DNA from: Leptonemataceae bacterium
Lineage (GTDB): Bacteria > Spirochaetota > Leptospiria > Leptospirales > Leptonemataceae
Assembly: GCA_965227295.1 (NCBI GenBank)
Contig: OZ245742.1
Coordinates: 2,880,001-2,944,000, forward strand
Length of the DNA stretch: 64,000 bases
Direction of reading: 5' to 3'
A model generated the notes under the pieces. It saw only the letters and a list, made by a program, of their open reading frames with translations, did no database searches and was not told the DNA's origin. Position numbers and translations under genes: made by a program. Shown here one piece after another: positions 15,643-31,012 of the stretch. The number at the start of each line of letters is the position of its first letter. Within the stretch, counting starts at the first letter, position 1.

Positions 15643-15644
15643 CG

Positions 15645-17129
15645 GTGTCCACATCCATCGAGACAAAGATCATTGCCGCCCTGGTGTTTCGCGAGGCCGG
15701 GAGTCCGGAACCGCCGCAGCATCTTCTCGGCGAAGCGCGGCGTCGCCTGCAGGCGCTCTATCCGGACGTTCCCGTGCACGTCGCACATCAGGGACGGCTC
15801 ATCGATGCGCTGCGCTCGGCGCTTGCGGCCGCGGAAACAACGTCTTCGCAAAATGAGCAGGATAGTGTCGCCGTTTTCTACGACTGGTATCCGCTGCTCG
15901 ATGCCGAACTCAGCCGGGAAGCCGCCGACGAACACGGCCGTTACCTGGCTCACTTTACGTACGGCGAAAACATTCCCCGCGGCCTCATCCCCGATTTCGC
16001 TTCGGCGGAGTTCATCGCCTCGTTGCCGGACGAAGTGCCCGACGACCTGCGAACGTTCGTCTTTCGCAAGATCGATCAGTACGACGTCGAACTCTTTTAC
16101 CGCACGCCGGATCTGCGACAGTATCGCCTGGACGTTTCGTGCAGCAGCCCGCGTTCGCAGCAACTTGCCGCGAGCATTCTGAAACGTGCACCGGAGTTGA
16201 ACTTTGCCGGCCTCGCGGAATTCCTGCGCCGGGAACCGGAGGTGTTGCGCCCGTATCCCTCGTACTTCGAAATCGAAGCATGTGCGGTCTCCGGGGTGCG
16301 GCCCGGGTATTTGCCGCAACCGTTGCAACCACGTGATGCCGTGTTGGACGACGCCCTCATTCAGAAGCTGCGCGAGGATATTCAGAGCAACGGATTGTCC
16401 GGTGACGTCACCGTATCTTTTGCCGGTCCGGGCGACGTCCTCTGGCATCCGCGCTGGCCGGAACTGATCGAGCACTTTACGAAACTCGACGCCGTGCGGC
16501 GGGTCTTCGTCGAAACCTACGGAGTGCTGAGCGATGAGAACGCGCTGTCCGTCGTGGAGCAACTCGCGAAGCTGGAGCAGGCTCACAAAGTTGCGATGAT
16601 CGTACGTTTGTCCACTCTGCGCGGCGATCGTTACGCGGAACTCTACGGCAGCAATCGCCTGGCCGACGTCGAAAGGTTTCTTGCGGCGTTGCAGTCGGCT
16701 CTGTCCGGCGGCCCGGCGACGTTTTCGGCGTACGTGGAAATGCTGCGCCTCAAAGACAGTGACGATGAGGTCGGCGCATTCATGGATCGCTTCGAGGCGG
16801 ACGGATCGCGGGTGCAGCCGCTGCTGGGAAAATACAACAACTACGCCGGGCGCCTACCGGAGCGCCGCGCGGCGGACCTCACGCCCCTGGGGCGGGATTT
16901 CTGCTGGCATCTGGCGCGGGATCTGTACGTAACCGCAGAAGGCCGGGTGCCTCTCTGCAAACAAGACGTGTTTGCCGAACGCGAGACGGCCCTGGATCTC
17001 CGCGAGTACGACGTCGCCGGCATCCTTGCAAAAACGGCCGAACATCACGCGGCTTCGATTCGCGGCGAACATGAACGGATCCCCATGCCGTGCCTGCAAT
17101 GCGATGAATGGTACACGTTCAACGGCTAA
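15645..17129 (+). CDS. Spiro-SPASM protein (cytidylyltransferase-like N-term, degenerate radical SAM domain, C-terminal SPASM)
   Basis: YLAHFTYGENIPRGLIP, DQYDVELFY, LRPYPSYFEIE; C-term DLTPLGRDFCWHLARDLYVTAEGRVPLCKQD...CLQCDEWYTFNG; no CxxxCxxC motif; GTG start 15645. Confidence 0.88.
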   Translation: MSTSIETKIIAALVFREAGSPEPPQHLLGEARRRLQALYPDVPVHVAHQGRLIDALRSALAAAETTSSQNEQDSVAVFYDWYPLLDAELSREAADEHGRYLAHFTYGENIPRGLIPDFASAEFIASLPDEVPDDLRTFVFRKIDQYDVELFYRTPDLRQYRLDVSCSSPRSQQLAASILKRAPELNFAGLAEFLRREPEVLRPYPSYFEIEACAVSGVRPGYLPQPLQPRDAVLDDALIQKLREDIQSNGLSGDVTVSFAGPGDVLWHPRWPELIEHFTKLDAVRRVFVETYGVLSDENALSVVEQLAKLEQAHKVAMIVRLSTLRGDRYAELYGSNRLADVERFLAALQSALSGGPATFSAYVEMLRLKDSDDEVGAFMDRFEADGSRVQPLLGKYNNYAGRLPERRAADLTPLGRDFCWHLARDLYVTAEGRVPLCKQDVFAERETALDLREYDVAGILAKTAEHHAASIRGEHERIPMPCLQCDEWYTFNG

Positions 17130-17153
17130 TGCTCAGCCACGGAAAGTTAGCGC

Positions 17154-18083
17154 TCACATTAAAAACAAGGACCGTTCTTCCGGCGTGGGCAACCGGCAGC
17201 TTTCTTTTTTTCCGAACCAACGATAGCGATTCGCGGCGATGAGATCATACAGACCGTTGCGCCAGGAGCGCGGCAGGAGCAATGCAATCCGGGCGGACTT
17301 CCAGAGTCCGCCGAGACGCAGACCGATGGCGAGTACGGCGTCGGAGCGTTCGTGCAGACCGTGTTCGTCCAGATACAGCATGGTATTCATATCTTCCACG
17401 AGATCCGCGGCGAGTGTACGTTGCGCGAACTCGCCCTGGATCGGAGCATAACGAAAGATGCGGCCTCGATCCTCGACAATGATCCAGTCCACGGCCGTGT
17501 TGCAGAGGCCGCAGAAACCGTCGAAGAAAACCACCGGTGCCTGCCCGGGATGTGTCGCAGGGCGTCCGGGCCCCGGCCATCGGAACGCGAACAGGAACAA
17601 CAGCACCGCCGCCGGAATCAGCGAGGCCAGATAGGCGGCGGCGAAGAAACACAGGATGATGAGTGCAGCCGTTCCGGCCCAGGCGAGCGCGATGAGCCAT
17701 CGCTCGTGCCGCAGGGACCAGGCCGGGTTCGTCTGCCCGGCGAGGCGCCAGGGTTCGCCGCCGGGAGCCAGGACAATCAGGATCAACGGAAACGTACTGA
17801 GCCCGGCGGCCGCGGTTTCCGGCCAGGCGTTCAGGGCGCCGCCGCCTTGCAATGTAGGAGTTCCTACAAAGAGCATCGCGGCAATGACGGCCAGGCTGCT
17901 CAGCCGTCGGACGACTCCAACCATTACGAGTGCCCCTGCAAGTGCGCCCCCGCCGGCGGCCAGCAGGGCGCCGGGATCCGGTGCCGGGACACACATCGCG
18001 GCTCCCCAGGCCACGGCGAACAGGCCGGCCAAAATCCGATACATCGCGAATTGGTGCGGGCTGAGCTGCATTCGAGGCGACAT
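17154..18083 (-). CDS. DCC1/YuxK (DUF393) thiol-disulfide oxidoreductase-like domain fused to a membrane domain
   Basis: VVFFDGFCGLCN, RSDAVL, RNGLYDLIAANRYRWFGKKESCRLPT; hydrophobic N-terminal half. Confidence 0.88.
   Translation of the reverse strand: MSPRMQLSPHQFAMYRILAGLFAVAWGAAMCVPAPDPGALLAAGGGALAGALVMVGVVRRLSSLAVIAAMLFVGTPTLQGGGALNAWPETAAAGLSTFPLILIVLAPGGEPWRLAGQTNPAWSLRHERWLIALAWAGTAALIILCFFAAAYLASLIPAAVLLFLFAFRWPGPGRPATHPGQAPVVFFDGFCGLCNTAVDWIIVEDRGRIFRYAPIQGEFAQRTLAADLVEDMNTMLYLDEHGLHERSDAVLAIGLRLGGLWKSARIALLLPRSWRNGLYDLIAANRYRWFGKKESCRLPTPEERSLFLM
17853..17868. repeat. 16-bp palindromic motif, copy 1 (TGTAGGAGTTCCTACA)
   Basis: Seen directly; inside the DCC-like CDS, encoding VGTPT. 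Confidence 0.9.
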
Positions 18084-18084
18084 T

Positions 18085-18100
18085 TGTAGGAACTCCTACA
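18085..18100. repeat. 16-bp palindromic motif, copy 2 (TGTAGGAACTCCTACA)
   Basis: Seen directly; intergenic, just upstream of the DCC-like start codon. Confidence 0.9.
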
Positions 18101-18185
18101 ATCAAGGAGCCAGAAGGGGCCACGCGCGGCTGTAAAAATCCCGTGCAGGGCTCGATTTTCCCGCCCGAATGACGATAAAACACGT

Positions 18186-18977
18186 ATGAGCACGGAGCGT
18201 ACTTCCCCTCGCGTCGGCGTATTTATCCAGGCGCGCAGCAATTCCAGCCGTCTGCCGGGAAAGATCTATGCCGGCCTGCCGAACGAGCAGAGCGAATCCG
18301 TACTCGAGCACATCTACCGCCGGTTGTCCACGATGAGCCGGGCCGCCATTGTCGTCCTCGTTCCGGACAGTGACGCCTTTCTGCAACAATGGTGTCGGTC
18401 GCGAGGCATGACTGTCTTTGCCGGTCCGGAGGATGATGTGCGCGAGCGTTATCGTCGCGCAGCGACGCACTTCGGCGTGGATGTGATTGTCCGGGCGACC
18501 GGCGACAATCCCTGCGTGGATCCGGAAATCGCCGTGGATACGGTGCGCGAGCTCATGCATCGGAACGTGGACCTGCTTTCCTTCGGCAATCTGCCGCTCG
18601 GTGTCGCCGTTGAAGCGATGACCGTGGACGCGCTCATGTCCGATCGTGCCCATACCGACGGGACCGTACCGCCCATTCATCGGGAACACGTGAGCCTGCA
18701 CATCAAACATCATCCTGAACAATACAGCATTGAACACCCTGAACATCCTGTAATCGAACAGGTGCTCGGAGTCGCGTCGCCGGGTGCCGAGCACCTGCCC
18801 CGTCTCACGGTGGACACGCCGGAAGACCTCACTGTCGTCCGGCAGCTCTATCGTGAACTGGGCGGGCGCTTTCGGCTGCGGCAGATCCTGCATCTCTTTC
18901 GCGCACGCCCGGAAATGTTTGTCGGCAACCGGCGCATCGTTCAGCGCAGCTTCGCGCCGGTACGCTCGGTGTCTTGA
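18186..18977 (+). CDS. SpsF-like cytidylyltransferase
   Basis: FIQARSNSSRLPGK, GPEDDVRERY, VRATGDNP, LPLGVAVE, REHVS, RLTVDTPEDL. Confidence 0.9.
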   Translation: MSTERTSPRVGVFIQARSNSSRLPGKIYAGLPNEQSESVLEHIYRRLSTMSRAAIVVLVPDSDAFLQQWCRSRGMTVFAGPEDDVRERYRRAATHFGVDVIVRATGDNPCVDPEIAVDTVRELMHRNVDLLSFGNLPLGVAVEAMTVDALMSDRAHTDGTVPPIHREHVSLHIKHHPEQYSIEHPEHPVIEQVLGVASPGAEHLPRLTVDTPEDLTVVRQLYRELGGRFRLRQILHLFRARPEMFVGNRRIVQRSFAPVRSVS

Positions 18978-19870
18978 AGATCGCGATCATCACCGGCGCC
19001 GGCAGGATCGGCGGCATCCAGTACGGCAGCGGTCACTTCGAACGCATGTCGGAACTCCGACGGCGACTGGAGCGACGCGGGGATTCCGCGGAGATCGTTC
19101 CACCGGGTGCGGCCCCGATCCCGGCCGATCTCTACGTCGTCGACGCGCGGGACCTGGATCCGGGGCCCTTCCGCGCCACCGGCCGTCCCGTCCTGGCCCT
19201 CGACAATCGCCACGAATCTCGCCCGCATCACGATCCGCATGCCGACGGAGTCATCTTCTACGATACGATCCCGCATCCCGACGCCGATCTCAGGGCAACT
19301 CTGCGCCGTGCTCTGATCGGGGAAGATGTCATCGAATGTCGGAGTTCCTACAAGGGCGGACCGGGCCCCCGGGACGATCCGGGCCGGGGGCGACCGCGGA
19401 TCTTTGCATACAGCGGCGCATTCCCCGATGTAGCGGGTCTGGACGATTTCCTGGCAGCCGCGGCGCGGCGCGGCCAGGTGGTCAAGCGCTGCGGCACGGC
19501 ACCGCCGACGGCCTCGCTACAGGCGGCCGGTGGTCATCACATCGGGCGCGAATCTCGCGCCGAATTCCTGGCCGATCTTATCTCCGCGGACTGCGTCATC
19601 ACTTACTTCGGAATGACGCTTCTCGAAGCCTGGTATCTGGAAACCGTGCCCGTACTCTACGAAACCACGAGCCCGGTGCACGAAGAACTCGGAGACTACC
19701 TTGCCGGCGCCGCGGGGATACAGCGCCTGCGGTGGAGCGACACATCTCCGGTCGAAAACGAACACCGGCTGGAGCGCCTGGCTGCCGACGATTGGCCGTT
19801 GCCTCCCGGTGGACCAGGCGGCAACGGCTATGACCTTTTAATAGAAGAAATCGACCGACTGAGCCTTTGA
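18974..19870 (+). CDS. Divergent SpsG/PseG-like GT-B fold protein
   Basis: N-term IITGAG...GSGHFERM resembles the PseG/SpsG GxGHxxR motif; ADCVITYFGMTLLEA resembles the GT-B C-terminal motif; overlaps the spsF stop. Confidence 0.65.
   Translation: MKIAIITGAGRIGGIQYGSGHFERMSELRRRLERRGDSAEIVPPGAAPIPADLYVVDARDLDPGPFRATGRPVLALDNRHESRPHHDPHADGVIFYDTIPHPDADLRATLRRALIGEDVIECRSSYKGGPGPRDDPGRGRPRIFAYSGAFPDVAGLDDFLAAAARRGQVVKRCGTAPPTASLQAAGGHHIGRESRAEFLADLISADCVITYFGMTLLEAWYLETVPVLYETTSPVHEELGDYLAGAAGIQRLRWSDTSPVENEHRLERLAADDWPLPPGGPGGNGYDLLIEEIDRLSL
19337..19352. repeat. 16-bp palindromic motif, copy 3 (TGTCGGAGTTCCTACA, 1 mismatch)
   Basis: Inside the SpsG-like CDS, encoding CRSSY. Confidence 0.8.
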
Positions 19871-20506
19871 TCAACGATTGGGTTGCGGCGTCAGGCGCAG
19901 ATACGGTTTCACCGCACGGTAGCCTTTCGGAAACTTCTTGTCCGCCTCTTCGTTGGAAACAGCCGGCACGATCACGCAGTCCTCGCCGTCCTTCCAGTTT
20001 GCCGGCGTGGCCACCTGATGGTTCGCCGTCAGTTGCAGCGAATCGATGACACGCAGCAGCTCGTCGAAGTTCCTGCCGGTGGACGCCGGATAGGTGAGCG
20101 TGAGTTTGACCTTCTTGTCCGGCCCGATCACGAAGACCGAACGCACTGTCAGGCTGTCCGAGGCGTTCGGGTGAATCATGTCGTACAGCTCCGAAACCTT
20201 GCGATTCTCGTCGGCGATCATCGGAAAGTTCACCGTCGTGCTCTGGGTTTCGTTGATATCGTTGATCCAGCCCTTGTGATCGTCCAGGCCGTCCACCGAC
20301 AGGCCGATCACCTTCACGTTGCGTTTGTCAAACTCGCTCTTCATTTTTGCCACGTAGCCAAGTTCCGTGGTGCACACCGGCGTGTAATCCGCCGGATGCG
20401 AAAACAAAACGCCCCATTGGTCGCCGAGCCACTCGTGAAATTTGAGCTTGCCCTCGGTTGTGTCGGCCTCGAAGTCCGGGGCCGTATCGCCTAATCTGAG
20501 TCCCAT
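19871..20506 (-). CDS. 1-Cys peroxiredoxin (Prx6 family)
   Basis: FSHPADYTPVCTTELG, YPASTGRNFDE, ATPANW; GGAGGAGG RBS before ATG 20506. Confidence 0.96.
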   Translation of the reverse strand: MGLRLGDTAPDFEADTTEGKLKFHEWLGDQWGVLFSHPADYTPVCTTELGYVAKMKSEFDKRNVKVIGLSVDGLDDHKGWINDINETQSTTVNFPMIADENRKVSELYDMIHPNASDSLTVRSVFVIGPDKKVKLTLTYPASTGRNFDELLRVIDSLQLTANHQVATPANWKDGEDCVIVPAVSNEEADKKFPKGYRAVKPYLRLTPQPNR

Positions 20507-20539
20507 AATAATTCCTCCTCCGCCGTTTGTCGGCGGCAA

Positions 20540-20560
20540 TTCCTACTGTTTTAGTAGGAA
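20540..20560. promoter_or_regulatory. Inverted repeat TTCCTACT-N5-AGTAGGAA in the divergent prx/hydrolase intergenic region
   Basis: Perfect 8-bp arms about 34 bp upstream of the prx start. Confidence 0.4.
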
Positions 20561-20682
20561 AAAAGGATTTCGCTCCGTCCGCGGCAAGTGAAAATTTTTC
20601 CGGGGAATTTTTGTCGCGGCTTGTCCAGGATAGCGAATCCTCGGCCAGAATAGATATTCACTCCTGAAGTGAGGAAGAGCTC

Positions 20683-21684
20683 ATGTTGAAACGCATCGTC
20701 GGCATTTTTCTGGCCGTTCTGGTTCTGCTCGTGCTGTTGGCCGGGTTCGGCGTCGCCTGGTATTTCACATCCCAGGCCCTGTATCCTGCATGGCAGGGCA
20801 AAGATCTGGATACCTGCCCGGAGCATCGCATTGCCGGATGGGGAGAGGCCTGCGGCAATCTGAGAAATCAGGGCCGGTTGAAGTTCCAGGAAGTCACCTT
20901 TCCGACGTCCCGTGGCTACAGCGTACCCGCCTGGAAATTGTCGTCCGTGGAGAACCGCCGCGTACTTCCGGCCAGTCCCGGTGCCGGGGCGTATCGCTGT
21001 GCTCGCGCCGGTCGTTGCGCCGCCTTTTTTGTCCACGGCGGAGGAGCCGATCGCCGCGAAGGCTACCGATTTGCCCCGTACTTCCTCGGCCGCGGATTCG
21101 ATTTCTACATGCCCGACCTGGTTTGCCACGGGGAGGCCGCCTGCATGCGCCGGGGGCTGAGCTTCGGCGTCCGCGAGCACCTGGACGTGCTTTCGGTCTA
21201 TGATGCCCTGAGCGCCGGTGATCGTTACGACACCATCGTTGTCATGGGCACGTCGGTCGGCGGCATTTCGGTCCTGATGGCTCTGCCGGAGATGGACGAG
21301 GTCTCCGCAGTCGTGGTTGAGAACCCCATGTACAGTGTGCGGCGTTTTGTGCGCGAAACCTCCCGGGCCCCGGCCTTCTTTCCGCTCTGGTATCGGGATT
21401 TCCTGTACTTCATGCTGTCCTTGCGCGGTGGATTCGACGCGAGCGAAGGCGCCGCGGCCGGATTGCAGCGGGCCGGCGAGTCGGGAGAGGACGTCCCGGT
21501 CTTTCTCATGCACGGAACCGCGGACGATCTGATCCCCATCGACCACACCCGGGAGATGTACGAGGAGTACAGCGGTCCCAAAGAGCTACGTATCGTCGAA
21601 GGCGCTGAACACGCGCGCCTCTGGAACGCCGACCCGGGCGAGTATGAGCGTCGTCTGGACCTTTTCTTTCGAAAGCACCTCTGA
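20683..21684 (+). CDS. Membrane-anchored alpha/beta hydrolase
   Basis: N-terminal TM; FVHGG, nucleophile GTSVGG, MHGTADDLIP, GAEH. Confidence 0.88.
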   Translation: MLKRIVGIFLAVLVLLVLLAGFGVAWYFTSQALYPAWQGKDLDTCPEHRIAGWGEACGNLRNQGRLKFQEVTFPTSRGYSVPAWKLSSVENRRVLPASPGAGAYRCARAGRCAAFFVHGGGADRREGYRFAPYFLGRGFDFYMPDLVCHGEAACMRRGLSFGVREHLDVLSVYDALSAGDRYDTIVVMGTSVGGISVLMALPEMDEVSAVVVENPMYSVRRFVRETSRAPAFFPLWYRDFLYFMLSLRGGFDASEGAAAGLQRAGESGEDVPVFLMHGTADDLIPIDHTREMYEEYSGPKELRIVEGAEHARLWNADPGEYERRLDLFFRKHL

Positions 21685-21980
21685 GCCGCGGTTGCCGGCC
21701 GGGCCGGCCCACTTTTTTAGTGGACCGGCCTGTTCTAAGGTGACATAATCCGGTTCATTTTTCGCGGGTTCTGACCGATGCATCCTGAGAGGAGGCGAGA
21801 CCGGATACAATAGTTCCTTGACGCTGGTGCGCCGCGTAAAAAACTGACGAAAGGCTTTGTGCGGCGCACAAAGGTCGCCTGGAAAACCGGGCTGAGCGTC
21901 GCTATACTGAGAAACATAGATACAGATACGAACGAAAACCTCATGCGAAGCCTCGGAGTTCGGAAAAGGGGGGAAACAAG

Positions 21981-22661
21981 ATGACCTACAACATTGAATC
22001 GAAAGTCAAACAAGACATGGACTGGAACAAACTGCGTAGCCTGCTCCTGAAAAAACGAGTCCTGATCCCGGCCCTGGCCGTGCTCCTCGTTTTTGCAGTA
22101 CGGATCGACCTGTCCGGCACCCCGGACCCGGCCGTTCAGCGGGAGCGCATTAGCGCCTACATTGACCACTTCGAACCGCGGGGTATGACCCCGGCGGAAC
22201 ACGATCGCCTGGTGGATGCCATCATGGAGGCCGGCGCAGAAATGGAAATCCCTTCCACGATGCGGATCGATGGACGCCGGATTGTCGGCTCGTATCTGAT
22301 CGCGGCCTACATTCGAGTGGAGTCCTCGTTCCAGCGGCGCGCCCGGTCCATTTCCGACGCTCGGGGTTACATGCAACTGAAGCCGGTCACAGCCCGGTGG
22401 ATCAACTCGGTCGGGCAGCGTCGTTATACCGCCGCTCAGGTGAATCTCTGGGACACGGAGGTAAACGTGGACCTGGGTGCCGAGTATATCAGCTACCTCA
22501 TGACCGAGATGGTGGATGCGCGTAAGGTGGCGCTGGCTTACAATGCCGGCCCGAACAGCGTCCGCCGGGGCATCTACATCGAGGATTACTGGGAAAAGAT
22601 CCTCCACACCTATCGCCAGCTTCGCACCGGTGAGTTTACGGAAGAGGGCGTTCGGCTCTAA
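21981..22661 (+). CDS. Lytic transglycosylase (SLT domain)
   Basis: IRVESSF...ARS..ARGYMQLKP, NVDLGAEY, ALAYNAGP. Confidence 0.9.
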   Translation: MTYNIESKVKQDMDWNKLRSLLLKKRVLIPALAVLLVFAVRIDLSGTPDPAVQRERISAYIDHFEPRGMTPAEHDRLVDAIMEAGAEMEIPSTMRIDGRRIVGSYLIAAYIRVESSFQRRARSISDARGYMQLKPVTARWINSVGQRRYTAAQVNLWDTEVNVDLGAEYISYLMTEMVDARKVALAYNAGPNSVRRGIYIEDYWEKILHTYRQLRTGEFTEEGVRL

Positions 22662-23230
22662 TCCTCTCGCTCGAACCTGGCCTGCTCCAGATATACGTAG
22701 CCGCCGCGCTTGGGAGACTCCCAGCCGCGGCGGCGCAGTTCCCGCCCCAGCAACCACAGAAAAAAACCATGCGAGTACAGCGCCACCTGGCGCTGCGGAA
22801 CGTCGGTGACCTTGCGCTCCAGATAGTCTGCCGCCGCGCGGACGCGGTGTAGCGACTCCCGCCTGCTTTCGGCCGCGGGCTGCCAGCCGGTAAACCAGCC
22901 CCAGCGCACGATCAGCAATAACAGCCAGGTCGGCAGGTGCAGACCTTCATTGCGAAAGCGGCCCAGAGGGATCTCCCGGAACATGGCATTGATTTCGATG
23001 TCTGTGACGCTCAGGCCGGTATAGAGGACGGCCGTGTCCAGGGCGCGAGGAAGATCGGAAGAGATGGGATGCGCGGTTTCCGGAGGGATCGGTCCGGGGA
23101 GACGCTCGCGGTTCCACGTCGGTTCCAGGCCGGCGTCGTCGTAGGCGTCGAGCAGGCGATTCATCTCACCGGCGCGGAGCCAACGACGCGGTTCACCGCT
23201 GTAGCGCAGAGTCGGTCGACCGTGACGCAC
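22658..23230 (-). CDS. Histidine phosphatase (PGM-like) family protein; true start probably slightly upstream
   Basis: In-frame IILVRHG, SSDLPRALDTA, FREIP, ALYSHGFF. Confidence 0.75.
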   Translation of the reverse strand: MRHGRPTLRYSGEPRRWLRAGEMNRLLDAYDDAGLEPTWNRERLPGPIPPETAHPISSDLPRALDTAVLYTGLSVTDIEINAMFREIPLGRFRNEGLHLPTWLLLLIVRWGWFTGWQPAAESRRESLHRVRAAADYLERKVTDVPQRQVALYSHGFFLWLLGRELRRRGWESPKRGGYVYLEQARFERED

Positions 23231-23283
23231 CAGGATGATGCCGGCGCGGGTGTTTGACGGAGATGATGCGTATGCCGGAGGGC

Positions 23284-23502
23284 TCAGTCGCCGCGCTCCA
23301 GTTTTCCGAGCAGGCGCTCCAGGTCTCCCAGGTTCGCATCGTCCGGAGCCTGAGGGGCCGGCATGTCGCTCAGATCGTACTGTTCCAGTTTCTTGTTGAG
23401 CAGTTCGAGGTGCTGCTGTAGTCGCCGTCGGGTGTTGAACCAGATGTTCACCCGGTGTTTCTCGATGAGATCGAGTTCTGAGTACTTCTTACGGGCGGGC
23501 AT
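23284..23502 (-). CDS. Hypothetical small protein (72 aa)
   Basis: ATG 23502 immediately after the upstream stop; coiled-coil-like MPARKKYSELDLIEKHRVNIWFN... Confidence 0.6.
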   Translation of the reverse strand: MPARKKYSELDLIEKHRVNIWFNTRRRLQQHLELLNKKLEQYDLSDMPAPQAPDDANLGDLERLLGKLERGD

Positions 23503-23503
23503 G

Positions 23504-24139
23504 TCAGTTCTCTTCGAATTCGATGCGCTTGACGACGTCCTTGTGGCAGACGACGCGATGGCCGTTGGAAGGCCCCTCGATACCGGTGTACCACTTGCCG
23601 TCTTTATCCTGGAAGTCCATCCAGTAGCTGAATAATTGCACGGTTCCGTTGGGATTTTCAACGACGAATTGCGAGAGAAACGGAAAAAGCTCTCCGTCCC
23701 GGATGAGGCTGCGTCCGCCGTGCAACTCCACCACGCTGCGATCCGCATCGAAGCGATAGATCCAGCCGCTTTCCCGCTGCTTGACCATGGATCCCTTCCA
23801 GCGCTTGAGTTCGATGGAGCGAATTTCCCGGGGGCGCACGTCCTTGCGGTAGCGCACGCCGTCCACCTGGTGGAAGATTGAAATCACTTCCGGTACGCGT
23901 ACGGTGATATCGCCACCCACACGCCGTCCGTCACAGAGTTCCACTTTTACGGAGAAGCGGCGTTCTTCCAACTGCGGCCCTTTTTGTTCGCCGCTCTCCC
24001 CTTCCCGGGCGGTCGGCCCGGCGGTCTTCTCGACAGGCTCCGAACTAGTCGTCGACCCCTGGGAGTGCAGGTTACCCCGGGCGGGCAGCAGTACCAGCAG
24101 GGCAGCGATTAGAACGGGGCTGTACGCTGCTAATTTCAT
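23504..24139 (-). CDS. Hypothetical exported protein
   Basis: Signal peptide MKLAAYSPVLIAALLVLLPA; beta-rich mature part; operonic spacing. Confidence 0.7.
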   Translation of the reverse strand: MKLAAYSPVLIAALLVLLPARGNLHSQGSTTSSEPVEKTAGPTAREGESGEQKGPQLEERRFSVKVELCDGRRVGGDITVRVPEVISIFHQVDGVRYRKDVRPREIRSIELKRWKGSMVKQRESGWIYRFDADRSVVELHGGRSLIRDGELFPFLSQFVVENPNGTVQLFSYWMDFQDKDGKWYTGIEGPSNGHRVVCHKDVVKRIEFEEN

Positions 24140-24170
24140 CTTGCTAATCTTCAGTCAATCGAACTCAGTC

Positions 24171-25349
24171 CTAGATCAGGCCGCGGAGCGACATGGCGAT
24201 GCGTTCGACGTTATTTGCCGTGAGCGCGGGATAGATCGGAATCGCCACGGCTTTCTGGTAGATGCGTTCGGCGTTCGGGAATTCCAGGCGGGCCCGGCCC
24301 AGAAGATGGTGCAGGGGCGGGTCCACCGCGCGGCCGACACCGATCTGGAGCGAAGCGAAGTAGCGCAGGACCTCTTCGTTGCTCTTGTTGATGATAACCG
24401 GAAAGCGCAGATACGCGTCCGTGCCCGTGTTCTTAAAGTAGGTCTCGTGTTTCGTGGTCCGCAGGGTCTCTAAGTACTTCTGCGCGATCTTTTTGCGGCG
24501 GGCGAGGGTCACTCCCAGGCGCGAGAGTTGATCGAGGCCCATGGCGGCCTGAAAATCTTCCAGGCCGTAGTCGAAGGCGATGGAGCCGGCGGTACGTTTG
24601 CCGCCGTAGCGGTAGTTATGCAGGGTCTTGTAGACCTTCGGGTCCTGGGTGACGATCACGGCACCGTTGCCCGTCGTCAAAAGATCGTACTCGGAGAGAC
24701 CGCAGACGCCGACGTGGCCGCCCTTGCCGAAGTACTCGCCTTCTTGATCGGAACCCACCAGACCGGTGAAGTCTTCGATGATCTTAACGCCGCGTTCCTG
24801 AAGTGTCTCCGGAACGATCGGCGAAACGCTGCCGAAGGTATGATCGTACACATAAAAGATTTTGCGGCCTTCCTCGGTGACGGGTGCTGCTTCTTCCGCG
24901 TCGGGCTCTCCGGAAGAAGCCGGTTCTACCGGCACGGCCGGGCTGTCCTCGATCAGGGCGTCGATCTTTTCCAGGAGAGTCTCCGGGTCCGGATGGAACG
25001 AACCGCGGCCGACGTCGATGACCACCGGCTCCGCGCCGACGTAACGCACGGCATCGATGGCCTGCACGGGGGAGAGCGCGCTCATGACCACGACATCGCC
25101 GGGCTGCATGCCGAGAGTGAGGTACGAAAGATGATAGGCCGCTGCCAGCGAGTTGACTGCCAGCACGTGTTTGTAAGCAAACGCATGCGCGAAGCTGCGC
25201 TCGAAGCGGCGCGTGATATCGCCCTGGCCGAGGCGATCCTGGATCAAGCAGTCCAGGACCGATTCCAGTTCCTGTTTGGACAGGGTCGGGCGGTGAGCCT
25301 CGATGGGTTTCGGTTTCTTTTCGTTTAGATACAGACTAACCGATGACAC
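24171..25349 (-). CDS. DegT/DnrJ/EryC1/StrS aminotransferase-like protein lacking the PLP lysine
   Basis: AVNS..AYHL, PGDVV, GAEPVVIDV, IIED, LTTGNGA, QAAMGLDQL, RRKKIAQKY, FPNAE, IPIYPAL; the expected FSFxxxK reads CGLSEYD. Confidence 0.85.
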   Translation of the reverse strand: MSSVSLYLNEKKPKPIEAHRPTLSKQELESVLDCLIQDRLGQGDITRRFERSFAHAFAYKHVLAVNSLAAAYHLSYLTLGMQPGDVVVMSALSPVQAIDAVRYVGAEPVVIDVGRGSFHPDPETLLEKIDALIEDSPAVPVEPASSGEPDAEEAAPVTEEGRKIFYVYDHTFGSVSPIVPETLQERGVKIIEDFTGLVGSDQEGEYFGKGGHVGVCGLSEYDLLTTGNGAVIVTQDPKVYKTLHNYRYGGKRTAGSIAFDYGLEDFQAAMGLDQLSRLGVTLARRKKIAQKYLETLRTTKHETYFKNTGTDAYLRFPVIINKSNEEVLRYFASLQIGVGRAVDPPLHHLLGRARLEFPNAERIYQKAVAIPIYPALTANNVERIAMSLRGLI

Positions 25350-25426
25350 AGATCACCTCAAGAGTACAGATTGGCGCATGTTCATAACGCGGGGACAAGT
25401 CTACGGGGCCGGGACTCGATGAAAAC

Positions 25427-25497
25427 TATTTAATGTGCCATCGAGCCGGATTATGTCGCATTAAATACCGCGAGAATTGGACACACTTATGTCACAT
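25427..25497. promoter_or_regulatory. AT-rich inverted and direct repeats upstream of the DegT-like operon
   Basis: TATTTAATGTGCCAT-N11-ATGTCGCATTAAATA plus TTATGTCACAT 36 bp after TTATGTCGCAT. Confidence 0.4.
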
Positions 25498-25583
25498 GGC
25501 ATCCGCGATTTGTACCCCCGTCAATCGAAATTGTGGAAAATTTGTGCACGGTGCTTTGCCCGGCGGCGAGGGGAGTTCGTGCA

Positions 25584-26957
25584 CTAGCGAAAATCGCGGC
25601 TGACCGTGGCCTGGTACACCAGCGCCGGTCCGGCCGCAGCACGGAGCCGGACGTTCCAGCCGCGATCGGCGAGATCGCCGGGCAGATAGAGGACGGTGCC
25701 GCGAGCGATCCGTCCCCCGTGTTCCCGACTCCCGTCCGTGGCGCGGACGATTTCCAGGTCGTAGCCGCCCGGGCTCAGGCCGAGCAGGATGGACGGGCGA
25801 TCGCTGTGGTCGAGCTCCAGCGGCGGGGCAATGCCGTCAATGCTCGCGCTCCGCAGGGCGAACCGGTGGACTTCGAATTCACGGACCGGAACTTTGTAGG
25901 AACTCTTACACGAGGTGTCTCTGGCGGCCGGGGAGGCCTTCGGCTCATGGACCTCGGGCGGGCCGTAGCGATAGTGCAGCATGTCCACGAGTGTGTCGAC
26001 ATCCATGAACTTCGGGGTGAGGCCGGCGCGGACCACGTTGTCCGAGGCTGCCATGCATTCGAGGATGCGCCCGCCCAGGTACGCGTGGGGTTCGTTGGGA
26101 CCCAGGAAGAGGGCCTGGTCCGGTTTTAGTTCCAGGTAGTTCAGGAAGTAGGCCGAAAACAGGCCGCGGTCGCTTTCGCCGTAGATTTCGGCGAGCTGCA
26201 GAAAGAGCGCGTCGGCCGGATCCAGGTTGGTGGCCGGATCTCCGTCTTCGCCCCAGGCGGTGAGTCGAAGCTTCTGGGCGCGCACGGCCTCGGTGATTTC
26301 CCCCGGACTGGAACGCATGAGACGGCCGTAGGCGTCCTTGATCCAGGCGCGCTGCTGTACCTCATTCCCCGCCGGTTCCGGAAGTGGGGAGGAATCTTCG
26401 CCTTCGCTACAGGGCTCGTACAGAAAGCCCGCGTCCGAACACAGGGCGGCCAGTTCGGGGATACGCTGGAGATAGCCGGCGATTTCCTGAGGGCTGCGAA
26501 AGCCGATCAGAGCGGTCATGCCGGCCAGACAGACGGCCAGTTCCGGCTTGTGATTGGCGTCGGGATAGTGCTCTGGATCCCGGGCGTGGAGCTGCGGCGC
26601 GAGTTCCAGGTCCGGATGAGCCTGGATGGATAGCGGTTCCGCGGCGTCCAGAATCTTGAATAAGAACGGAAGCTGCCGATGACCGGCCTGCGCCAGGTCC
26701 GGCCCCAGGAAGTGCCGCGGGTCTTCGGCGATGGCCTTGTCCAGGCTCCGTCCGTCAAAGGTTGCGCCCGGCGCACGCAGGACGGACGGCGCCTTCGGAT
26801 GCGCACCCATCCAGAGCTCGGCGGCGGGCCGGTCGTCGGCGGGAGTCGTGCCGCGCAATTCGTGGATGAATGCGGCCTTCCCGCGGGAGCCCCATGCATA
26901 GTCCATGACGCTGCAGTCCAGTTCGTAGAATACGGGATGTTCGCTCGGCTCTGGCAC
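25584..26957 (-). CDS. manA: Mannose-6-phosphate isomerase, class I
   Basis: YAWGS, AELWMGAHP, LPFLFKIL...LSIQAHP, YPDANHKPE, PHAYLGG..ECMAASDNVVRAGLTPK. Confidence 0.96.
   Translation of the reverse strand: MPEPSEHPVFYELDCSVMDYAWGSRGKAAFIHELRGTTPADDRPAAELWMGAHPKAPSVLRAPGATFDGRSLDKAIAEDPRHFLGPDLAQAGHRQLPFLFKILDAAEPLSIQAHPDLELAPQLHARDPEHYPDANHKPELAVCLAGMTALIGFRSPQEIAGYLQRIPELAALCSDAGFLYEPCSEGEDSSPLPEPAGNEVQQRAWIKDAYGRLMRSSPGEITEAVRAQKLRLTAWGEDGDPATNLDPADALFLQLAEIYGESDRGLFSAYFLNYLELKPDQALFLGPNEPHAYLGGRILECMAASDNVVRAGLTPKFMDVDTLVDMLHYRYGPPEVHEPKASPAARDTSCKSSYKVPVREFEVHRFALRSASIDGIAPPLELDHSDRPSILLGLSPGGYDLEIVRATDGSREHGGRIARGTVLYLPGDLADRGWNVRLRAAAGPALVYQATVSRDFR
25895..25910. repeat. 16-bp palindromic motif, copy 4 (TGTAGGAACTCTTACA, 1 mismatch)
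   Basis: Inside manA, encoding CKSSY. Confidence 0.85.
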
Positions 26958-26961
26958 TTGC

Positions 26962-27216
26962 TTAGATTCGTTCCGTGTCGCTCACGTCCGGTCGTGGTTG
27001 CTCAATGGCCGGCGGCTCCGTGGCCGGCGGTGCATCCCGGATGATGCTGCGAAACGTAAACAACCCGGGCGCAAACAGCCGCAGGGCGAACAGAAAGAGT
27101 GCCACGTAAAGGACAAGTCTCAGGATCGACTCCCGGTTCAACGGCAGTCCCGATCCCGGTATCAATGCGCCCAGGTCTTCGCGGACCAGGTCGGCGAGAC
27201 GGCGTAGTACGGGCAT
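26962..27216 (-). CDS. Hypothetical single-TM membrane protein
   Basis: Fills the gap in a co-directional run; TM ILRLVLYVALFLFALRLFA. Confidence 0.55.
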   Translation of the reverse strand: MPVLRRLADLVREDLGALIPGSGLPLNRESILRLVLYVALFLFALRLFAPGLFTFRSIIRDAPPATEPPAIEQPRPDVSDTERI

Positions 27217-27258
27217 GAGGCAGTCTTTCCCACACCATACTTTGCGAAAACAAAAATC

Positions 27259-27753
27259 TTACTCCGTCGCGGCCCGATGTAGTTGATGGGTGGAGTAGTG
27301 GTGCGGTTCGTAGATGCGCAGAAAGAGCGTATCGTCCCGTTGCCAGAGCTTGCATCGGTAGGCGGCACTGGCGGAGGGGACGATGATTCGGCCGAGCACG
27401 TACTCGCCGCCTTCGGCGCGCAGCCCGCTGATCATTTTCATTCCCAGGAGCGGTTGGTTCGCGGCGGGAGCGGGACAGCCCGTGCACCTGGCCGACATGG
27501 AATCGTTTGTACCGGGCAGGGCGATGATACGCGCGCCCAGGAAGGTCCGGGCGCCGGCCGGGCCATTGTCGGCGACCTGGTTGTGAAATTCGAGAACGAC
27601 GTCGCCGGGAAAGAGGCGATCATCGGCGGGGAGGACGTAGCGCCCTTCCGGCGGAGATGAGGGAGCCGCATCTGCGTGGGCTGCCACGAAGGCCGTTGCC
27701 GCGACAAGCAGCAGGACAATGATTCGCTGCTTTGAAGAACTTATCGCGTCCAC
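27259..27753 (-). CDS. DUF2147-family exported protein (divergent copy)
   Basis: CTGCP...NQPLLGMKMISGL...Y..GRI..P....YRCKLW...LFLR. Confidence 0.7.
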   Translation of the reverse strand: MDAISSSKQRIIVLLLVAATAFVAAHADAAPSSPPEGRYVLPADDRLFPGDVVLEFHNQVADNGPAGARTFLGARIIALPGTNDSMSARCTGCPAPAANQPLLGMKMISGLRAEGGEYVLGRIIVPSASAAYRCKLWQRDDTLFLRIYEPHHYSTHQLHRAATE

Positions 27754-28202
27754 TCCTGAACTTCTCCCATGGCGGGAATACTCAGGAAGCTGAAGACACG
27801 CAGCTTCTTGCCGTCGTCGGCGAGTTCGATGTAGCAGTTGTAGGTCTTACCTTCGTCGGCCCGGTAGATCTTACCACCGCTCCACTTCTCACCGTCGAAG
27901 CGGAGACCGTGGATGATTTCCAGTTCGGTGAGTTTGACGCCGCGTTCCCGGGGATTGGGATTGTTCACGTCGGTGCGGGCCGTGCCGTCGGCGTTGTTCG
28001 GTTCCGCCATCCAACTGATGCGACCGCAGTACTTATCGCCGCACTGGACGAAGGTGACCTTGCTTTTTCCGTCGGGGCGCGTCCATTCGTGCAGGATGGC
28101 GTCGGCGCCCGGTTGGGCGAGCAGAGCCCCGGTGGTGAGCAGGGCGAAGAGAGCGGCGCACAGAACCGTGCGCCGCCGTAAGTTGTTAAGTTTTCTTTGC
28201 AT
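27741..28202 (-). CDS. DUF2147-family exported protein
   Basis: WTRPDG..KVTF..CGDKYCGRISW, DVNNPNP, WSGGKIY...GKTYNC; start ATG 28202. Confidence 0.88.
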   Translation of the reverse strand: MQRKLNNLRRRTVLCAALFALLTTGALLAQPGADAILHEWTRPDGKSKVTFVQCGDKYCGRISWMAEPNNADGTARTDVNNPNPRERGVKLTELEIIHGLRFDGEKWSGGKIYRADEGKTYNCYIELADDGKKLRVFSFLSIPAMGEVQEWTR

Positions 28203-28206
28203 GATG

Positions 28207-28695
28207 TTAGCGAGTCCAGTGGACGGTCTTGCCGAGGTACGAGACGCCGACATAACCGCGGACCTTTAGTTTTTTCGGGTTTTCCAGCTCCATGTAGCAG
28301 CTGTAGGTCTTGCCGTCCTTTGGATTGTAGATATTACCGCCGGACCACTTGTCGCCGTCCCAGGTGAAGCCCCACACCAGAAACATGCCCTGGATCGGAC
28401 GGTCACGCTTGGAGGCGTCGGGATTGTTGCGGTCGTGTTTGGGCTGACCCGCTTCGGCATCACCGGCAGGATAGTTCGGCTCTTTGAGCCAGGTGATTTT
28501 TCCGCAGAGCTTGTCCTTGGAGCCGTCGCCGTCGGTATCTTTGCCGCAGCGAAACAGGGTGACGCGAGAATCGCCGTCCTGGGTCGTCCAGGTTCCGGCG
28601 TAGTCGTCGGCCGAGGCTGCATGCAGGATGCCGGCGAAGGCGATGCCCGCAATGAGCGCGGCCAGCGCGAGCATTCGGTTGCGTACGTAGTTCAT
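28207..28695 (-). CDS. DUF2147-family exported protein
   Basis: GTWTTQDG, LCGKITWLKEP, DRNNPD, WSGGNIYNPKDGKTYSC, LKVRGYVG..LGKTVHWTR. Confidence 0.92.
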   Translation of the reverse strand: MNYVRNRMLALAALIAGIAFAGILHAASADDYAGTWTTQDGDSRVTLFRCGKDTDGDGSKDKLCGKITWLKEPNYPAGDAEAGQPKHDRNNPDASKRDRPIQGMFLVWGFTWDGDKWSGGNIYNPKDGKTYSCYMELENPKKLKVRGYVGVSYLGKTVHWTR

Positions 28696-28809
28696 AGTTT
28701 CCCCCTTGAGGTGTGCATTTTTTTATGATGCAAGTCTTAGATACGATGCCGCGCAAGAATTGTTTGAATTTTTTCGGGAAAATCTCTCGACGGGGTTTGC
28801 TTTTGTGCG

Positions 28810-30147
28810 GTGCAAATTGGTGTGCGCGGTGATTCTTTGGATGTAAGGCGTGCCGGAGATGTTCTGCTCGCGCCGGGATTGGTGGGCCGGGATGACTGGT
28901 CGGAGCTCGGGCCGTTTGCTCTCGCCATTTCCGGCGGCCGGGATTCCATGCTGTTGCTGCACGCCTTCGTGGATCTCCGGGAACGCGGCCTGTTCGGTCG
29001 TGATTTCGTGGTCTTTCATCTGGACCATCGTTTGCGCGAAGACTCGGGCGCGGACCTGGATTTCGTCGCCGCTGAATCCCATCGTCTTGACGTTTCCTTC
29101 TATTGTACGTCGCGCGATGTGCGTGTGTTCGCGCGACGTTCTCGTATCGGCTCTCTGGAAGCGGCCGGCAGAACTCTGCGGTATCGTTCGCTGCGCCGGC
29201 TGTGTGAGCGGCGGTTCGGCGGAACGGGCATCGTGGTCACGGCCCATCATGCGGATGATTACCTGGAAAGTGTGCTCGTACACTGGATTCGCGGCGGAGG
29301 GCGTGCCGCCCTGGGGACGTTGCCCGTGATGGATCGCGGTCCGGAAGGGCTGACGCTGCTCCGACCGCTGCTCGCGCTTTCGCGCGCGGATGTTTCGGAG
29401 ATTGTGGCGCGGTTGGGCATTGCGTTTCGCGACGATCCTTCGAACGAGTCACCGGAGTTTTTGCGGAATCGTCTGCGGTCCGGCGTGATTCCGGCGCTGC
29501 GCCAGGAGGGCCTCGATGCCGTAAAGCTCTGGCGGAACTTTCACGATGCGCCCGGCGGGTCGGCCGGATTTGTAGGAACTCCTACAAAAGGGGGCGGCGC
29601 CGGCCCGGTGGAGGTTCTCTGTCTGGACCGCCGCCTTCTTGTAGGAACTCTTACGGAGCTGAAGGCCGTGCTGGACGTTGCGCTGCGACGCCTGGGATTG
29701 CCGCCGTCGGAGCGGGCGTTGCTCGCCGAACTCCGTTCCCAGCAGGCTCACGATGCCGCGGCGTTCCGGCAGGTTTTCGAATCTAAGTCGCTGCGGATCT
29801 GGTCGGATCGCCGCGGGCCGGTGTGGTTGTTTCGCCAGGACGCCGACGTGTTCCGCGCGCCGCGCTTCGAACGGGCCGGGAAAATCCTGCGCATCCACTG
29901 GAACGGCCGAACCCGGGAGTACGCTGCGACGGCGGGGCAGCGCCCGGGCGGTTTTGAGCCGGGTATGCGCGCGCCGCTGCCGGGAGGCGGGCACTTGCTC
30001 GTGAAAAAGATTTTTCAAGATGCCGGTGTGCCGGGCCCGCTGCGCCCGCTCATTCCCCTGCTCATCGACGAGGATTCGGGCCTGGTCTCGTGCATTTGCC
30101 TGTCGTTCTGGGAACACGGCAAGGATCGGCATTTCTTTTCTCCGTGA
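28810..30147 (+). CDS. tilS: tRNA(Ile)-lysidine synthetase
   Basis: AISGGRDSM, DHRLRE, LEAAGR..RY, TAHHADDYLE, RPLL, DPSN....RNRLR; start uncertain. Confidence 0.93.
   Translation: MQIGVRGDSLDVRRAGDVLLAPGLVGRDDWSELGPFALAISGGRDSMLLLHAFVDLRERGLFGRDFVVFHLDHRLREDSGADLDFVAAESHRLDVSFYCTSRDVRVFARRSRIGSLEAAGRTLRYRSLRRLCERRFGGTGIVVTAHHADDYLESVLVHWIRGGGRAALGTLPVMDRGPEGLTLLRPLLALSRADVSEIVARLGIAFRDDPSNESPEFLRNRLRSGVIPALRQEGLDAVKLWRNFHDAPGGSAGFVGTPTKGGGAGPVEVLCLDRRLLVGTLTELKAVLDVALRRLGLPPSERALLAELRSQQAHDAAAFRQVFESKSLRIWSDRRGPVWLFRQDADVFRAPRFERAGKILRIHWNGRTREYAATAGQRPGGFEPGMRAPLPGGGHLLVKKIFQDAGVPGPLRPLIPLLIDEDSGLVSCICLSFWEHGKDRHFFSP
29571..29586. repeat. 16-bp palindromic motif, copy 5 (extends to TTTGTAGGAACTCCTACAAA)
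   Basis: Inside tilS, encoding VGTPT. Confidence 0.9.
29640..29655. repeat. 16-bp palindromic motif, copy 6 (TGTAGGAACTCTTACG, 2 mismatches)
   Basis: Inside tilS, encoding VGTLT. Confidence 0.75.
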
Positions 30148-30208
30148 AGATGTTGACAGTGGTTTCTCGCAAGATGTAAGTATTTGCTCCTGCGCTTTGA
30201 GGTCGTCT

Positions 30209-30994: not shown

Positions 30995-31012
30995 TGTTTA
31001 CGGCGGTTTGCA

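Follow-up and report, generated by a model that had tools for sequence, protein, structure and literature searches.

The question raised by this locus is why one short palindrome should recur, in different reading frames and in both orientations, inside and between unrelated genes. The window, that is, the whole stretch of DNA analysed here, comprises 64,000 nucleotides of a Leptonemataceae bacterium (assembly GCA_965227295.1, contig OZ245742.1; G000:C1:2880001-2944000 in our numbering), whose genome (G000) is a single contig of 5.94 Mb with 59.8% G+C. The palindrome, TGTAGGAACTCCTACA, is 16 bp long and is referred to below as the box; unless stated otherwise, copies were scored at two or fewer mismatches. 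We found the box to be in large excess throughout the genome and to lie in frame within all six genes of the uncharacterised family DUF1564 (PF07600) in G000. The DUF1564 protein, for which a double ribbon-helix-helix (RHH) fold is predicted, probably recognises the box; the link between the two is correlative.

A motif search of the window returned six copies, at positions 17853, 18085, 19337, 25895, 29571 and 29640, and none in the rest of the 64 kb, whereas 100 dinucleotide shuffles yielded 0.01 on average and never more than 1. The same positions had been listed in an earlier note on this DNA, made from the letters alone, and are confirmed by the search and the shuffles. Five copies (17853, 19337, 25895, 29571 and 29640) lie in four genes and one (18085) is intergenic, as that note had also stated, and the clustering that it described holds at the scale of the genome, where the six copies within 12 kb form the densest group of boxes. 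Genome-wide, the box occurs 9 times exactly, 40 times with up to one mismatch and 78 times with up to two, and its 11-mer core GAGTTCCTACA occurs 70 times. For a codon-aware null model, synonymous codons were shuffled within each of 4499 crudely called open reading frames (ORFs), keeping proteins and codon usage; genes outside Pfam support came from our own crude caller (longest ORF plus codon log-odds), and their start positions are uncertain. The called ORFs held 47 boxes, compared with a mean of 2.4 (maximum 4) in 12 such shuffles, an excess of about 20-fold, and 44 cores, compared with a mean of 1.1 (maximum 2). The frequency of the box is thus far above the null. Its excess over synonymous-codon shuffles is therefore a property of the DNA, which supports the earlier proposal that selection or propagation acts on the DNA rather than on the proteins. 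The tension noted there between the A/T-ending codons of the box and a genome preferring G/C-ending codons is real as well (G+C at third codon positions, GC3, of long ORFs 0.735).

The 70 aligned cores are conserved only from 5 bases before to 2 bases after the core, which gives tTGTARGAGTTCCTACAaw. TGTAGGAACTC is nearly invariant, whereas the second arm varies, with CTTACA and CCGACA as frequent forms. Neighbouring copies are separated by 700 bp or less in 14 cases in G000, compared with 0.72 expected (2000 simulations, maximum 5), and no helical phasing was evident among the pair spacings (69-635 bp). By a strict test, which demanded an open frame with a positive codon score on both sides of the copy, 29 of the 78 copies are intragenic, compared with 60% of 2000 random positions; the boxes thus favour gene edges and gaps, and a third of them are truly intragenic. 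Four stop-free frames are used by the intragenic boxes, VGT[PL]T, V[GR]VPT, [CR][KR]SSY and SEFLQ, the last accompanying a box variant that removes TAG, and both orientations are found in coding sequence. The orientation relative to the replication strand, counted by eye, was 19:10 on one replichore and 26:23 on the other, which is not convincing.

Six G000 copies with similar flanks turned out to represent one reading frame of paralogous genes matching DUF1564. All six matches lie above the curated Pfam cut-off (25 bits), which places the genes in the family; the 198-aa protein encoded by one of them scored 71.9 bits (E 6.4e-20) against PF07600. The box is in frame in six of six genes and encodes V-[G/R]-V-P-T as GTA/GTC GGA GTT CCT ACA, near residue 130 of a protein some 200 residues long, with the GTT and ACA codons present in all six against the genome GC3 of 0.735. 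Two of the six genes have a second box, some 90 nt upstream of their start. The same two-box layout is found in the DUF1564 genes of two genomes of the same genus, G002 and G001 (genes L116 and L117), where the boxes are 478 and 505 bp apart and the internal one reads VGTPT, which is the same palindrome with its AC/GT centre inverted; the upstream and internal boxes of two-box genes are some 480-505 bp apart.

More distant DUF1564 genes retain the box in altered form. In G007 (58% G+C), all eight paralogues that keep Gly-x-Pro use GGA NNT CC, the middle residue being A, T or V. The paralogues of G009 carry TGGAGGAACTCCTCCA, a variant of the palindrome with matching changes in both arms, and G009 also contains a recently expanded subfamily (L154-L167) of near-identical genes of about 161 residues that end in ...KWNPITLCSIILDSRLRKLTRKLQT; no clear dispersed copies of TGGAGGAACTCCTCCA were found outside the DUF1564 genes of that genome. 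A further variant class, TGTCGGAACTCCGACA, occurs in G008, where two variant classes are found on two contigs. Judged from these aligned codons, DNA-level constraint on the internal box extends across genera. A search for exact k-mers shared among 30 DUF1564 loci of G007 had shown nothing striking and was superseded by the aligned-codon view and the core search, and comparison by eye of the in-gene box variants of G000 with the variants nearby revealed no correlation. A word-based protein search gave 4 close relatives of DUF1564, and a full HMMER search 362.

Searches of related genomes found the box across the order, in families f1 and f2. With up to one mismatch, the 16-mer occurs 11 times in G001, 27 times in G002, 29 times in G008 (genus g7) and once in G012, is absent from eight other genomes of family f1, and is present 27-118 times in all eight f2 genomes, whereas controls with the reversed pattern gave 0-1 copies. 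The f2 genomes are of low G+C (34-43% at the tilS loci) and about 4.4 Mb in size, some with three replicons, and their copy numbers fit the mention, in the earlier note, of similar repeats in Leptospira. PF07600 itself is listed in two Leptospira genome papers, according to which it also occurs in pathogenic Leptospira.

The boxes of G000 are concentrated around DUF1564 genes. Among the 69 copies outside DUF1564 loci, 21 lie within 50 kb of such a gene, compared with 7.0 expected (P 2.7e-6, post hoc), and with close pairs merged the count is 16 of 58, compared with 5.9 expected (P 1.5e-4, post hoc). The gene nearest to the window (G000 2872366-2872962) ends 7 kb before it. Together with a NUDIX gene it stands between carA and a gene for an OmpA-like protein (L141 5366-6457; G000 2872366-2873457); in G001 and G002, this gap lacks both genes and measures 740 and 485 bp, respectively, and the regions syntenic to the window hold fewer boxes. 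Four of the 11 copies in G001 lie within 14 kb of its sole DUF1564 gene, and 14 of the 27 copies in G002 are on two DUF1564 contigs that amount to 0.76 of 6.0 Mb. The 12-mer core GGAGTTCCKACR occurs 175 times in G008 (control 11), a genome mean of one per 40 kb. A DUF1564 contig of 16.9 kb has 12 of these cores, or close to one for each intergenic gap, and another of 25.7 kb has 11; the genes on these contigs are ordinary housekeeping genes. No transposase or integrase was found beside the six DUF1564 genes of G000, which stand singly among housekeeping genes.

The phyletic distributions of box and family also coincide. Across 121 genomes of the phylum, 25 or more copies of the 12-mer core were found in 11 (G000 and 10 of the 11 f2 genomes), and PF07600 was found in exactly the same 11; both are missing from the remaining f2 genome, G111. 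Outside the order, 109 genomes were covered, with five or fewer core copies and no DUF1564, and each of the 10 Leptospira-like genomes in this survey that carry the family has 8-26 copies of it. Within family f1, G004, G006 and G010 lack both, while G007 (70 core copies, control 4) and G011 (22, control 3) have both.

A possible function of DUF1564 was suggested by its predicted structure. The AlphaFold2 model, computed from an alignment of 85 sequences, has a predicted local distance difference test (pLDDT) score of 92.7 and contains two strand-helix-helix units (E21-29 H30-42 H47-57 and E84-92 H93-106 H110-122), which are followed by a helix, two strands and a long helix (136-194), with the box-encoded VGVPT in a linker. 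On this model, the N-terminal 130 residues of a single chain make up two RHH units, an arrangement shared with F-plasmid TraY. In Foldseek, the top nine matches all came from F-plasmid relaxosome entries, namely from their chains E, F and G (E 0.017, probability 1.0). We take these chains to be TraY, because the entries hold three TraY molecules according to the accessible part of the report on them (PMC12117103), which also describes F TraY as a monomer with a complete RHH dimer fold that binds as a train, two molecules in direct and one in inverted orientation. VIA-align likewise ranked the same TraY chain first, with Z 8.5 over 98 residues (root-mean-square deviation 3.2), ahead of a CRISPR-associated protein (Z 7.2), a permuted single-chain Arc (Z 6.6), the viral double-RHH protein AvtR (Z 6.4), DndE (Z 5.0) and VirC2 (Z 3.5), where values of Z below 8 are, by the tool's own note, common for unrelated pairs. 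A family-profile sequence search of solved structures returned nothing usable (best E 0.18), and no recognisable catalytic domain was evident in DUF1564 from the model or the structural comparison.

Two copies of DUF1564 were predicted to form a complex with a score of 0.69 (best control 0.00), a mark reached by 20 of 30 proteins solved as one-chain pairs and by 1 of 23 solved as single chains. At least 57% of the contacts were common to the runs, with a partner pLDDT of at least 70, and the predicted interface consists of an antiparallel pairing of strand 147-155 plus residues 1-18. The prediction supports a symmetric homodimer, in which the C-terminal domains of two molecules would pair. Such a dimer of single-chain RHH modules would suit a 16-bp palindrome with 7-bp arms, or a pair of boxes.

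The copies in the window were considered one by one. The seven copies, including a weaker seventh, are as follows:

17853..17868, perfect copy, TGTAGGAGTTCCTACA on the plus strand with centre GT on the plus strand, in the stretch of the DCC1-like gene that encodes its N-terminal membrane region, read F-V-G-T-P-T
18085..18100, perfect copy, intergenic, 1 nt before the start codon (ATG, 18083) of the DCC1-like gene and 85 nt upstream of the cytidylyltransferase gene (18186-18977, plus strand)
19046..19061, weak copy, TGTCGGAACTCCGACG, 3 mismatches, in ORF 18974-19870, read R-M-S-E-L-R-R
19337..19352, 1 mismatch, in a variable loop of ORF 18974-19870 (plus strand), read C-R-S-S-Y
25895..25910, 1 mismatch, in manA (25584-26957, minus strand), read C-K-S-S-Y-K
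29571..29586, perfect copy, in the variable linker between PP-loop and TilS_C of tilS (28810-30147, plus strand), read F-V-G-T-P-T
29640..29655, 2 mismatches, in tilS, 69 bp past the 29571 copy, read L-V-G-T-L-T

The genes concerned, assigned by Pfam where a family is named, are:

17154-18083, minus strand, DCC1-like gene with an N-terminal membrane extension (Pfam)
18186-18977, plus strand, cytidylyltransferase (CTP_transf_3; Pfam)
18974-19870, plus strand, ORF without a Pfam family, with orthologues in G001, G002, G008 and G012
25584-26957, minus strand, manA (Pfam)
28810-30147, plus strand, tilS (Pfam)

Comparison with orthologues showed a high turnover of these sites. The DCC1-like orthologue of G002 aligns over residues 2-309 and has no box. 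At the place orthologous to 19337, the box is absent in G001, G002 and G012, whereas the G008 orthologue has a perfect box four alignment columns away, in another frame (V-G-T-P-T) and with a flipped centre; G008 also has a similar weak copy at the place orthologous to 19046-19061. The tilS linker with its two copies is rich in indels and cannot be aligned, and neither copy was present at any of the 19 orthologous tilS loci examined. Only in manA is the site shared, with a two-mismatch copy CGTATGAGTTCCTACA in G002 (the proteins of G000 and G002 are 57% identical) and a degenerate sequence in G001. The earlier note had placed this copy on a conserved segment of the protein, which is partly right, as its right-hand part (AGT TCC TAC AAA) encodes the conserved SSYK. 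Two sequencing runs of one study cover the stretch with 0 differences, so no strain polymorphism could be read from them; a third run did not cover it, and none of the runs listed for the stretch was of RNA.

Some neighbouring genes may be recorded here. A 511-residue ORF (15594-17129, plus strand) with a good codon score and no Pfam match precedes the DCC1-like gene and overlaps a 347-residue ORF on the opposite strand. A DegT/DnrJ aminotransferase gene (24171-25349) near manA accompanies the cytidylyltransferase gene and ORF 18974-19870, and we presume that the genes of the interval 18186-25349 may belong to a nonulosonic or other activated-sugar pathway. Just upstream of tilS are three consecutive paralogous DUF2147 genes on the minus strand (27259-27753, 27741-28253 and 28207-28695), the first of which is a weak match to its family.

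Taken together, the distribution and the models lead us to propose, tentatively, that the box is the recognition site of a DNA-site/protein system confined to the order, with DUF1564 as the likely binder and the site serving as an operator or a DNA bridge; we consider this quite possible, although it falls somewhat short of probable. Binding, and any effect on expression, we infer from sequence patterns and the predicted fold. Of the functions suggested in the earlier note, a protein-binding site is the best supported, now with a candidate binder of TraY-like double RHH fold. The predicted homodimer would set one RHH module on each 7-bp arm of a box, or would bridge two boxes. An autoregulatory loop, formed by DNA looping, is suggested because boxes occur both upstream of and within the same DUF1564 gene. 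Around each DUF1564 gene, over tens of kilobases, further boxes would have built up at gene starts, in intergenic gaps and in variable protein loops that can accommodate them, and binding there would repress, block transcription or bridge DNA. Boxes at gene starts, such as that at 18085, which overlaps the ribosome-binding site and abuts the start codon, would block initiation, whereas those in the loops of unrelated genes may be tolerated extra sites.

Several observations weigh against such a system. Every link between box and DUF1564 is correlative, and the related genomes are not independent samples. In the low-G+C relative G018, the boxes are no closer to DUF1564 genes than expected by chance: for 51 merged positions and the 18 genes listed on the main replicon, the observed and expected numbers were 1 and 4.5 within 10 kb, 11 and 10.4 within 25 kb, and 22 and 18.9 within 50 kb. 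Copy numbers are not proportional, since G014 has 118 boxes but 3 DUF1564 genes, and DUF1564 occurs without dispersed boxes in G009 (18 genes), G003 (16 weak matches) and G005 (1 gene). The asymmetry of the box, with one arm and the centre near-invariant, is not predicted by a simple symmetric dimer, and the 29 copies well inside coding sequence are unusual for operators. Site turnover is high, with only the manA copy of the six in the window kept in G002 and none in G001. Moreover, part of the conservation inside DUF1564 genes may be at the protein level, because GVPT is the majority consensus of 85 family members.

The lack of proportion and the absence of clustering in G018 would fit if the box were the site of a different conserved DNA-binding or nucleoid-organising protein, with the DUF1564 genes merely one of its targets. 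The strictly centred palindrome, the pairing of copies and the boxes at gene starts would suit such a protein too, and the outline TGTA-N8-TACA recalls CRP/FNR-type sites such as that of NtcA. We nevertheless regard this alternative as improbable, given the exact co-occurrence of box and DUF1564 in the 121 genomes, including their joint absence from G111, and the DNA-level conservation inside DUF1564 genes with its lineage-specific symmetric variants. We also identified no alternative protein, and the copies follow no origin/terminus pattern. By GC skew, the origin of G000 lies at about 1.2 Mb and the terminus at about 4.1 Mb, and the 78 copies are densest at 2.87-3.23, 4.35-4.67 and 5.2-5.6 Mb, with a single copy in 3.3-4.3 Mb compared with 18 in 4.3-4.7 Mb just past the terminus, and no symmetry.

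This map also speaks against chromosome-organising roles, of which the earlier note had considered those of parS, NBS and matS. A parS/ParB centromere does not fit, as there is no cluster of a few copies near the origin at about 1.2 Mb, and neither do sites of the matS, Noc-binding (NBS) or SlmA-binding (SBS) type, as the copies show no symmetric confinement to, or exclusion from, the terminus. A DNA uptake sequence, raised in the same place, did not hold up either, with 78 copies and 70 cores compared with the hundreds to thousands expected.

The copies at gene starts raise the question of whether the box acts as RNA. In seven G000 copies, that at 18085 and six others, the stem contains AGGAG and a plausible start codon follows 0-10 nt later; on the minus strand the copy at 18085 reads TGTAGGAGTTCCTACAAATG, with its AGGAG at ribosome-binding distance from the DCC1-like start. 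A scan of window 17700-18300 for promoter and terminator consensus sequences gave no matches. A hairpin with a 7-bp stem and a 4-nt loop could control translation start, RNA stability or processing, and perfect copies do fold at -8.1 to -9.0 kcal/mol (z-scores -2.7 to -3.6); furthermore, the commonest variant, C12 to T, can still form a G-U pair on one of the strands, and in G017 most copies lie downstream of genes. Yet the CTTAC variant has 13 coding copies, in 8 of which the mRNA is the non-folding strand, the sense strand of the manA copy reaches only -2.4 kcal/mol, coding sequences contain both orientations, and the conserved A7/T10 pair would fall within the loop. Rfam returned no match in window 16500-31000; when 18 of the 30 box loci of G017 were searched, two tRNAs came up, together with a match of miRNA-like, long-hairpin type that was sub-threshold, and nothing else. 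Overall, an RNA function appears very unlikely to us.

A mobile origin of the box has to be weighed more carefully. The 30 copies examined in G017 lie in intergenic DNA, the majority of them downstream of genes or in gaps between convergent ones, and 13 of the 30 have a common GTYYYAAAA flank. One element in this genome (L063, about 1473-1634) is about 160 bp long, has 23-bp terminal inverted repeats (ACTAAGAACCCGTCTTAAAACTT ... AAGGTTTTGAGACGGGTTCTTAGT), encloses two box-like palindromes about 40 bp apart and can be folded into a single long hairpin (z -3.7). The G017 flank is carried by none of the 78 copies in G000, and on this comparison the 16-bp box is the conserved unit, because of that absence, while carriers resembling transposable elements of the miniature inverted-repeat type (MITEs) are lineage-specific. 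For G000, a MITE in the usual sense (50-500 bp with shared terminal inverted repeats) was rejected, as nothing is conserved beyond about 18 bp. The earlier suggestion of a MITE relic is therefore not supported for G000; in G017, part of the copies do sit inside MITE-like elements. Repetitive extragenic palindromes (REPs) mobilised by a REP-associated tyrosine transposase (RAYT) were rejected too: PF01797 was found in none of the 13 genomes with the 16-mer and in 1 of 21 overall (the boxless G004), while control genomes matched. Nor does the box have the REP tag, an unpaired GTAG on an extragenic palindrome of 20-40 bp, since its GTAG pairs with CTAC in the 7-bp arms and the unit measures 16-18 bp. 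G007 has intergenic tandem arrays with the box core, at L146 1463-1735 (G007:C5:82965-83231), L148 1481-1727 and L150 1356-1559, with units of 16 x 17 bp (GATGGAGTTCCTACACC), 15 x 16 bp and 3.5 x 58 bp, respectively; these 16-17-bp arrays resemble the trains and arrays bound by RHH proteins.

These data bear on the possibility that the box is a selfish, REP- or MITE-like palindrome with a master copy in or upstream of DUF1564 genes, the solo copies being spread locally by a mobilising activity or by short-patch gene conversion and surviving where insertion is tolerated, in intergenic gaps and variable protein loops; DUF1564 would then be an accessory protein of the element instead of a host regulator. 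Clustering around DUF1564 genes does resemble local hopping, the intragenic copies lie in indel-rich loops, orthologous places show either orientation and different frames, and the DUF1564 genes shift location between species and stand singly among housekeeping genes. The common flank and the element with terminal inverted repeats in G017 fit as well, and the accessible parts of two reports describe Leptospirales as unusually rich in MITEs (PMC11602168) and document intragenic REPs in linkers and loops (PMC3733652). Set against this are the lack of any conserved sequence beyond about 18 bp in G000 and a length of 16 bp that is not a multiple of 3; the lack of a Y1/RAYT transposase in the 13 genomes with the 16-mer, of a transposase or integrase adjoining the six DUF1564 genes, and of a recognisable catalytic domain in DUF1564; and the retention of the manA copy between G000 and G002. 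Conservation of a motif across an order would be unusual for a selfish repeat without a cognate enzyme, and a mobile unit of only 16-18 bp would be left unaccounted for. We therefore consider a selfish palindrome, the main alternative, plausible but on the whole unlikely, and it and the binding-site reading could both be partly true.

A further possibility would be that DUF1564 and the box form a self-propagating unit, which carries its recognition palindrome in its own reading frame and has seeded gene-less copies over the surrounding tens of kilobases, also in frame into host genes, without a recognisable transposase; in Leptospira-like genomes, the palindrome would then have been picked up and scattered by MITEs. 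On the present sequence comparisons, we think this scenario rather improbable.

The binding of the box by DUF1564, which we favour, can be compared with known systems. F-plasmid TraY, AvtR, VirC2 and the engineered single-chain Arc have two beta-alpha-alpha units in one chain, as does the DUF1564 model, for which TraY chains were the best matches. According to the accessible part of PMC12117103, TraY molecules occupy neighbouring sites in direct and inverted orientation as a train, and the boxes likewise are palindromes, come in close pairs and form 16-17-bp arrays in G007. Unlike TraY, DUF1564 (8-14% identity to it) has an extra C-terminal domain and is chromosomal and multi-copy with no adjoining relaxase, and it has candidate sites that run from tens to more than 100 in a genome and extend into coding sequence. 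For an RHH protein with repeated operator-like sites, it would be unusual to have these in its own reading frame, in many host genes and clustered around its paralogues. The GTAG-tagged REPs, as described in the accessible parts of PMC3733652 (Di Nocera et al. 2013), share with the box a short GTAG-containing palindrome, families of 20-100 units, frequent close pairs, an intergenic preference and occasional in-frame units in linkers and loops; the box differs in that its GTAG is paired in the stem, its unit is 16 bp and no RAYT/Y1 occurs in box-bearing genomes. The same parts of that source list no GTAG REP family in Spirochaetes, only CGTC repeats.

Two further parallels concern the arrangement of sites along the chromosome, namely that within one gene and that around the replicon. 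The lac operator O2 is an auxiliary operator inside lacZ that loops to the promoter operator. The upstream box of DUF1564 genes and the internal box 480-505 bp downstream, where codons are constrained by a DNA site, are similar in layout; unlike for O2, looping is only inferred for DUF1564, and the box has also spread to many unrelated genes. The sites parS, NBS, SBS and matS, which are recognised by ParB, Noc, SlmA and MatP, respectively, are palindromes of 12-16 bp that occur in tens per chromosome and often inside genes. The box differs from their consensuses in sequence, and its density follows DUF1564 genes instead of the origin or terminus. No description of the motif or of its link to DUF1564 was found in the open-access literature, where a search for the literal motif gave one unrelated match.

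For DUF1564, an uncharacterised family up to now, these results provide a predicted fold, a predicted dimer and a specific candidate DNA ligand. More generally, the box is a case of a DNA site that constrains codons in many unrelated genes, and the DUF1564 genes themselves offer an example of a palindrome kept in the reading frame of its own presumed binder, with symmetric compensating changes between lineages.

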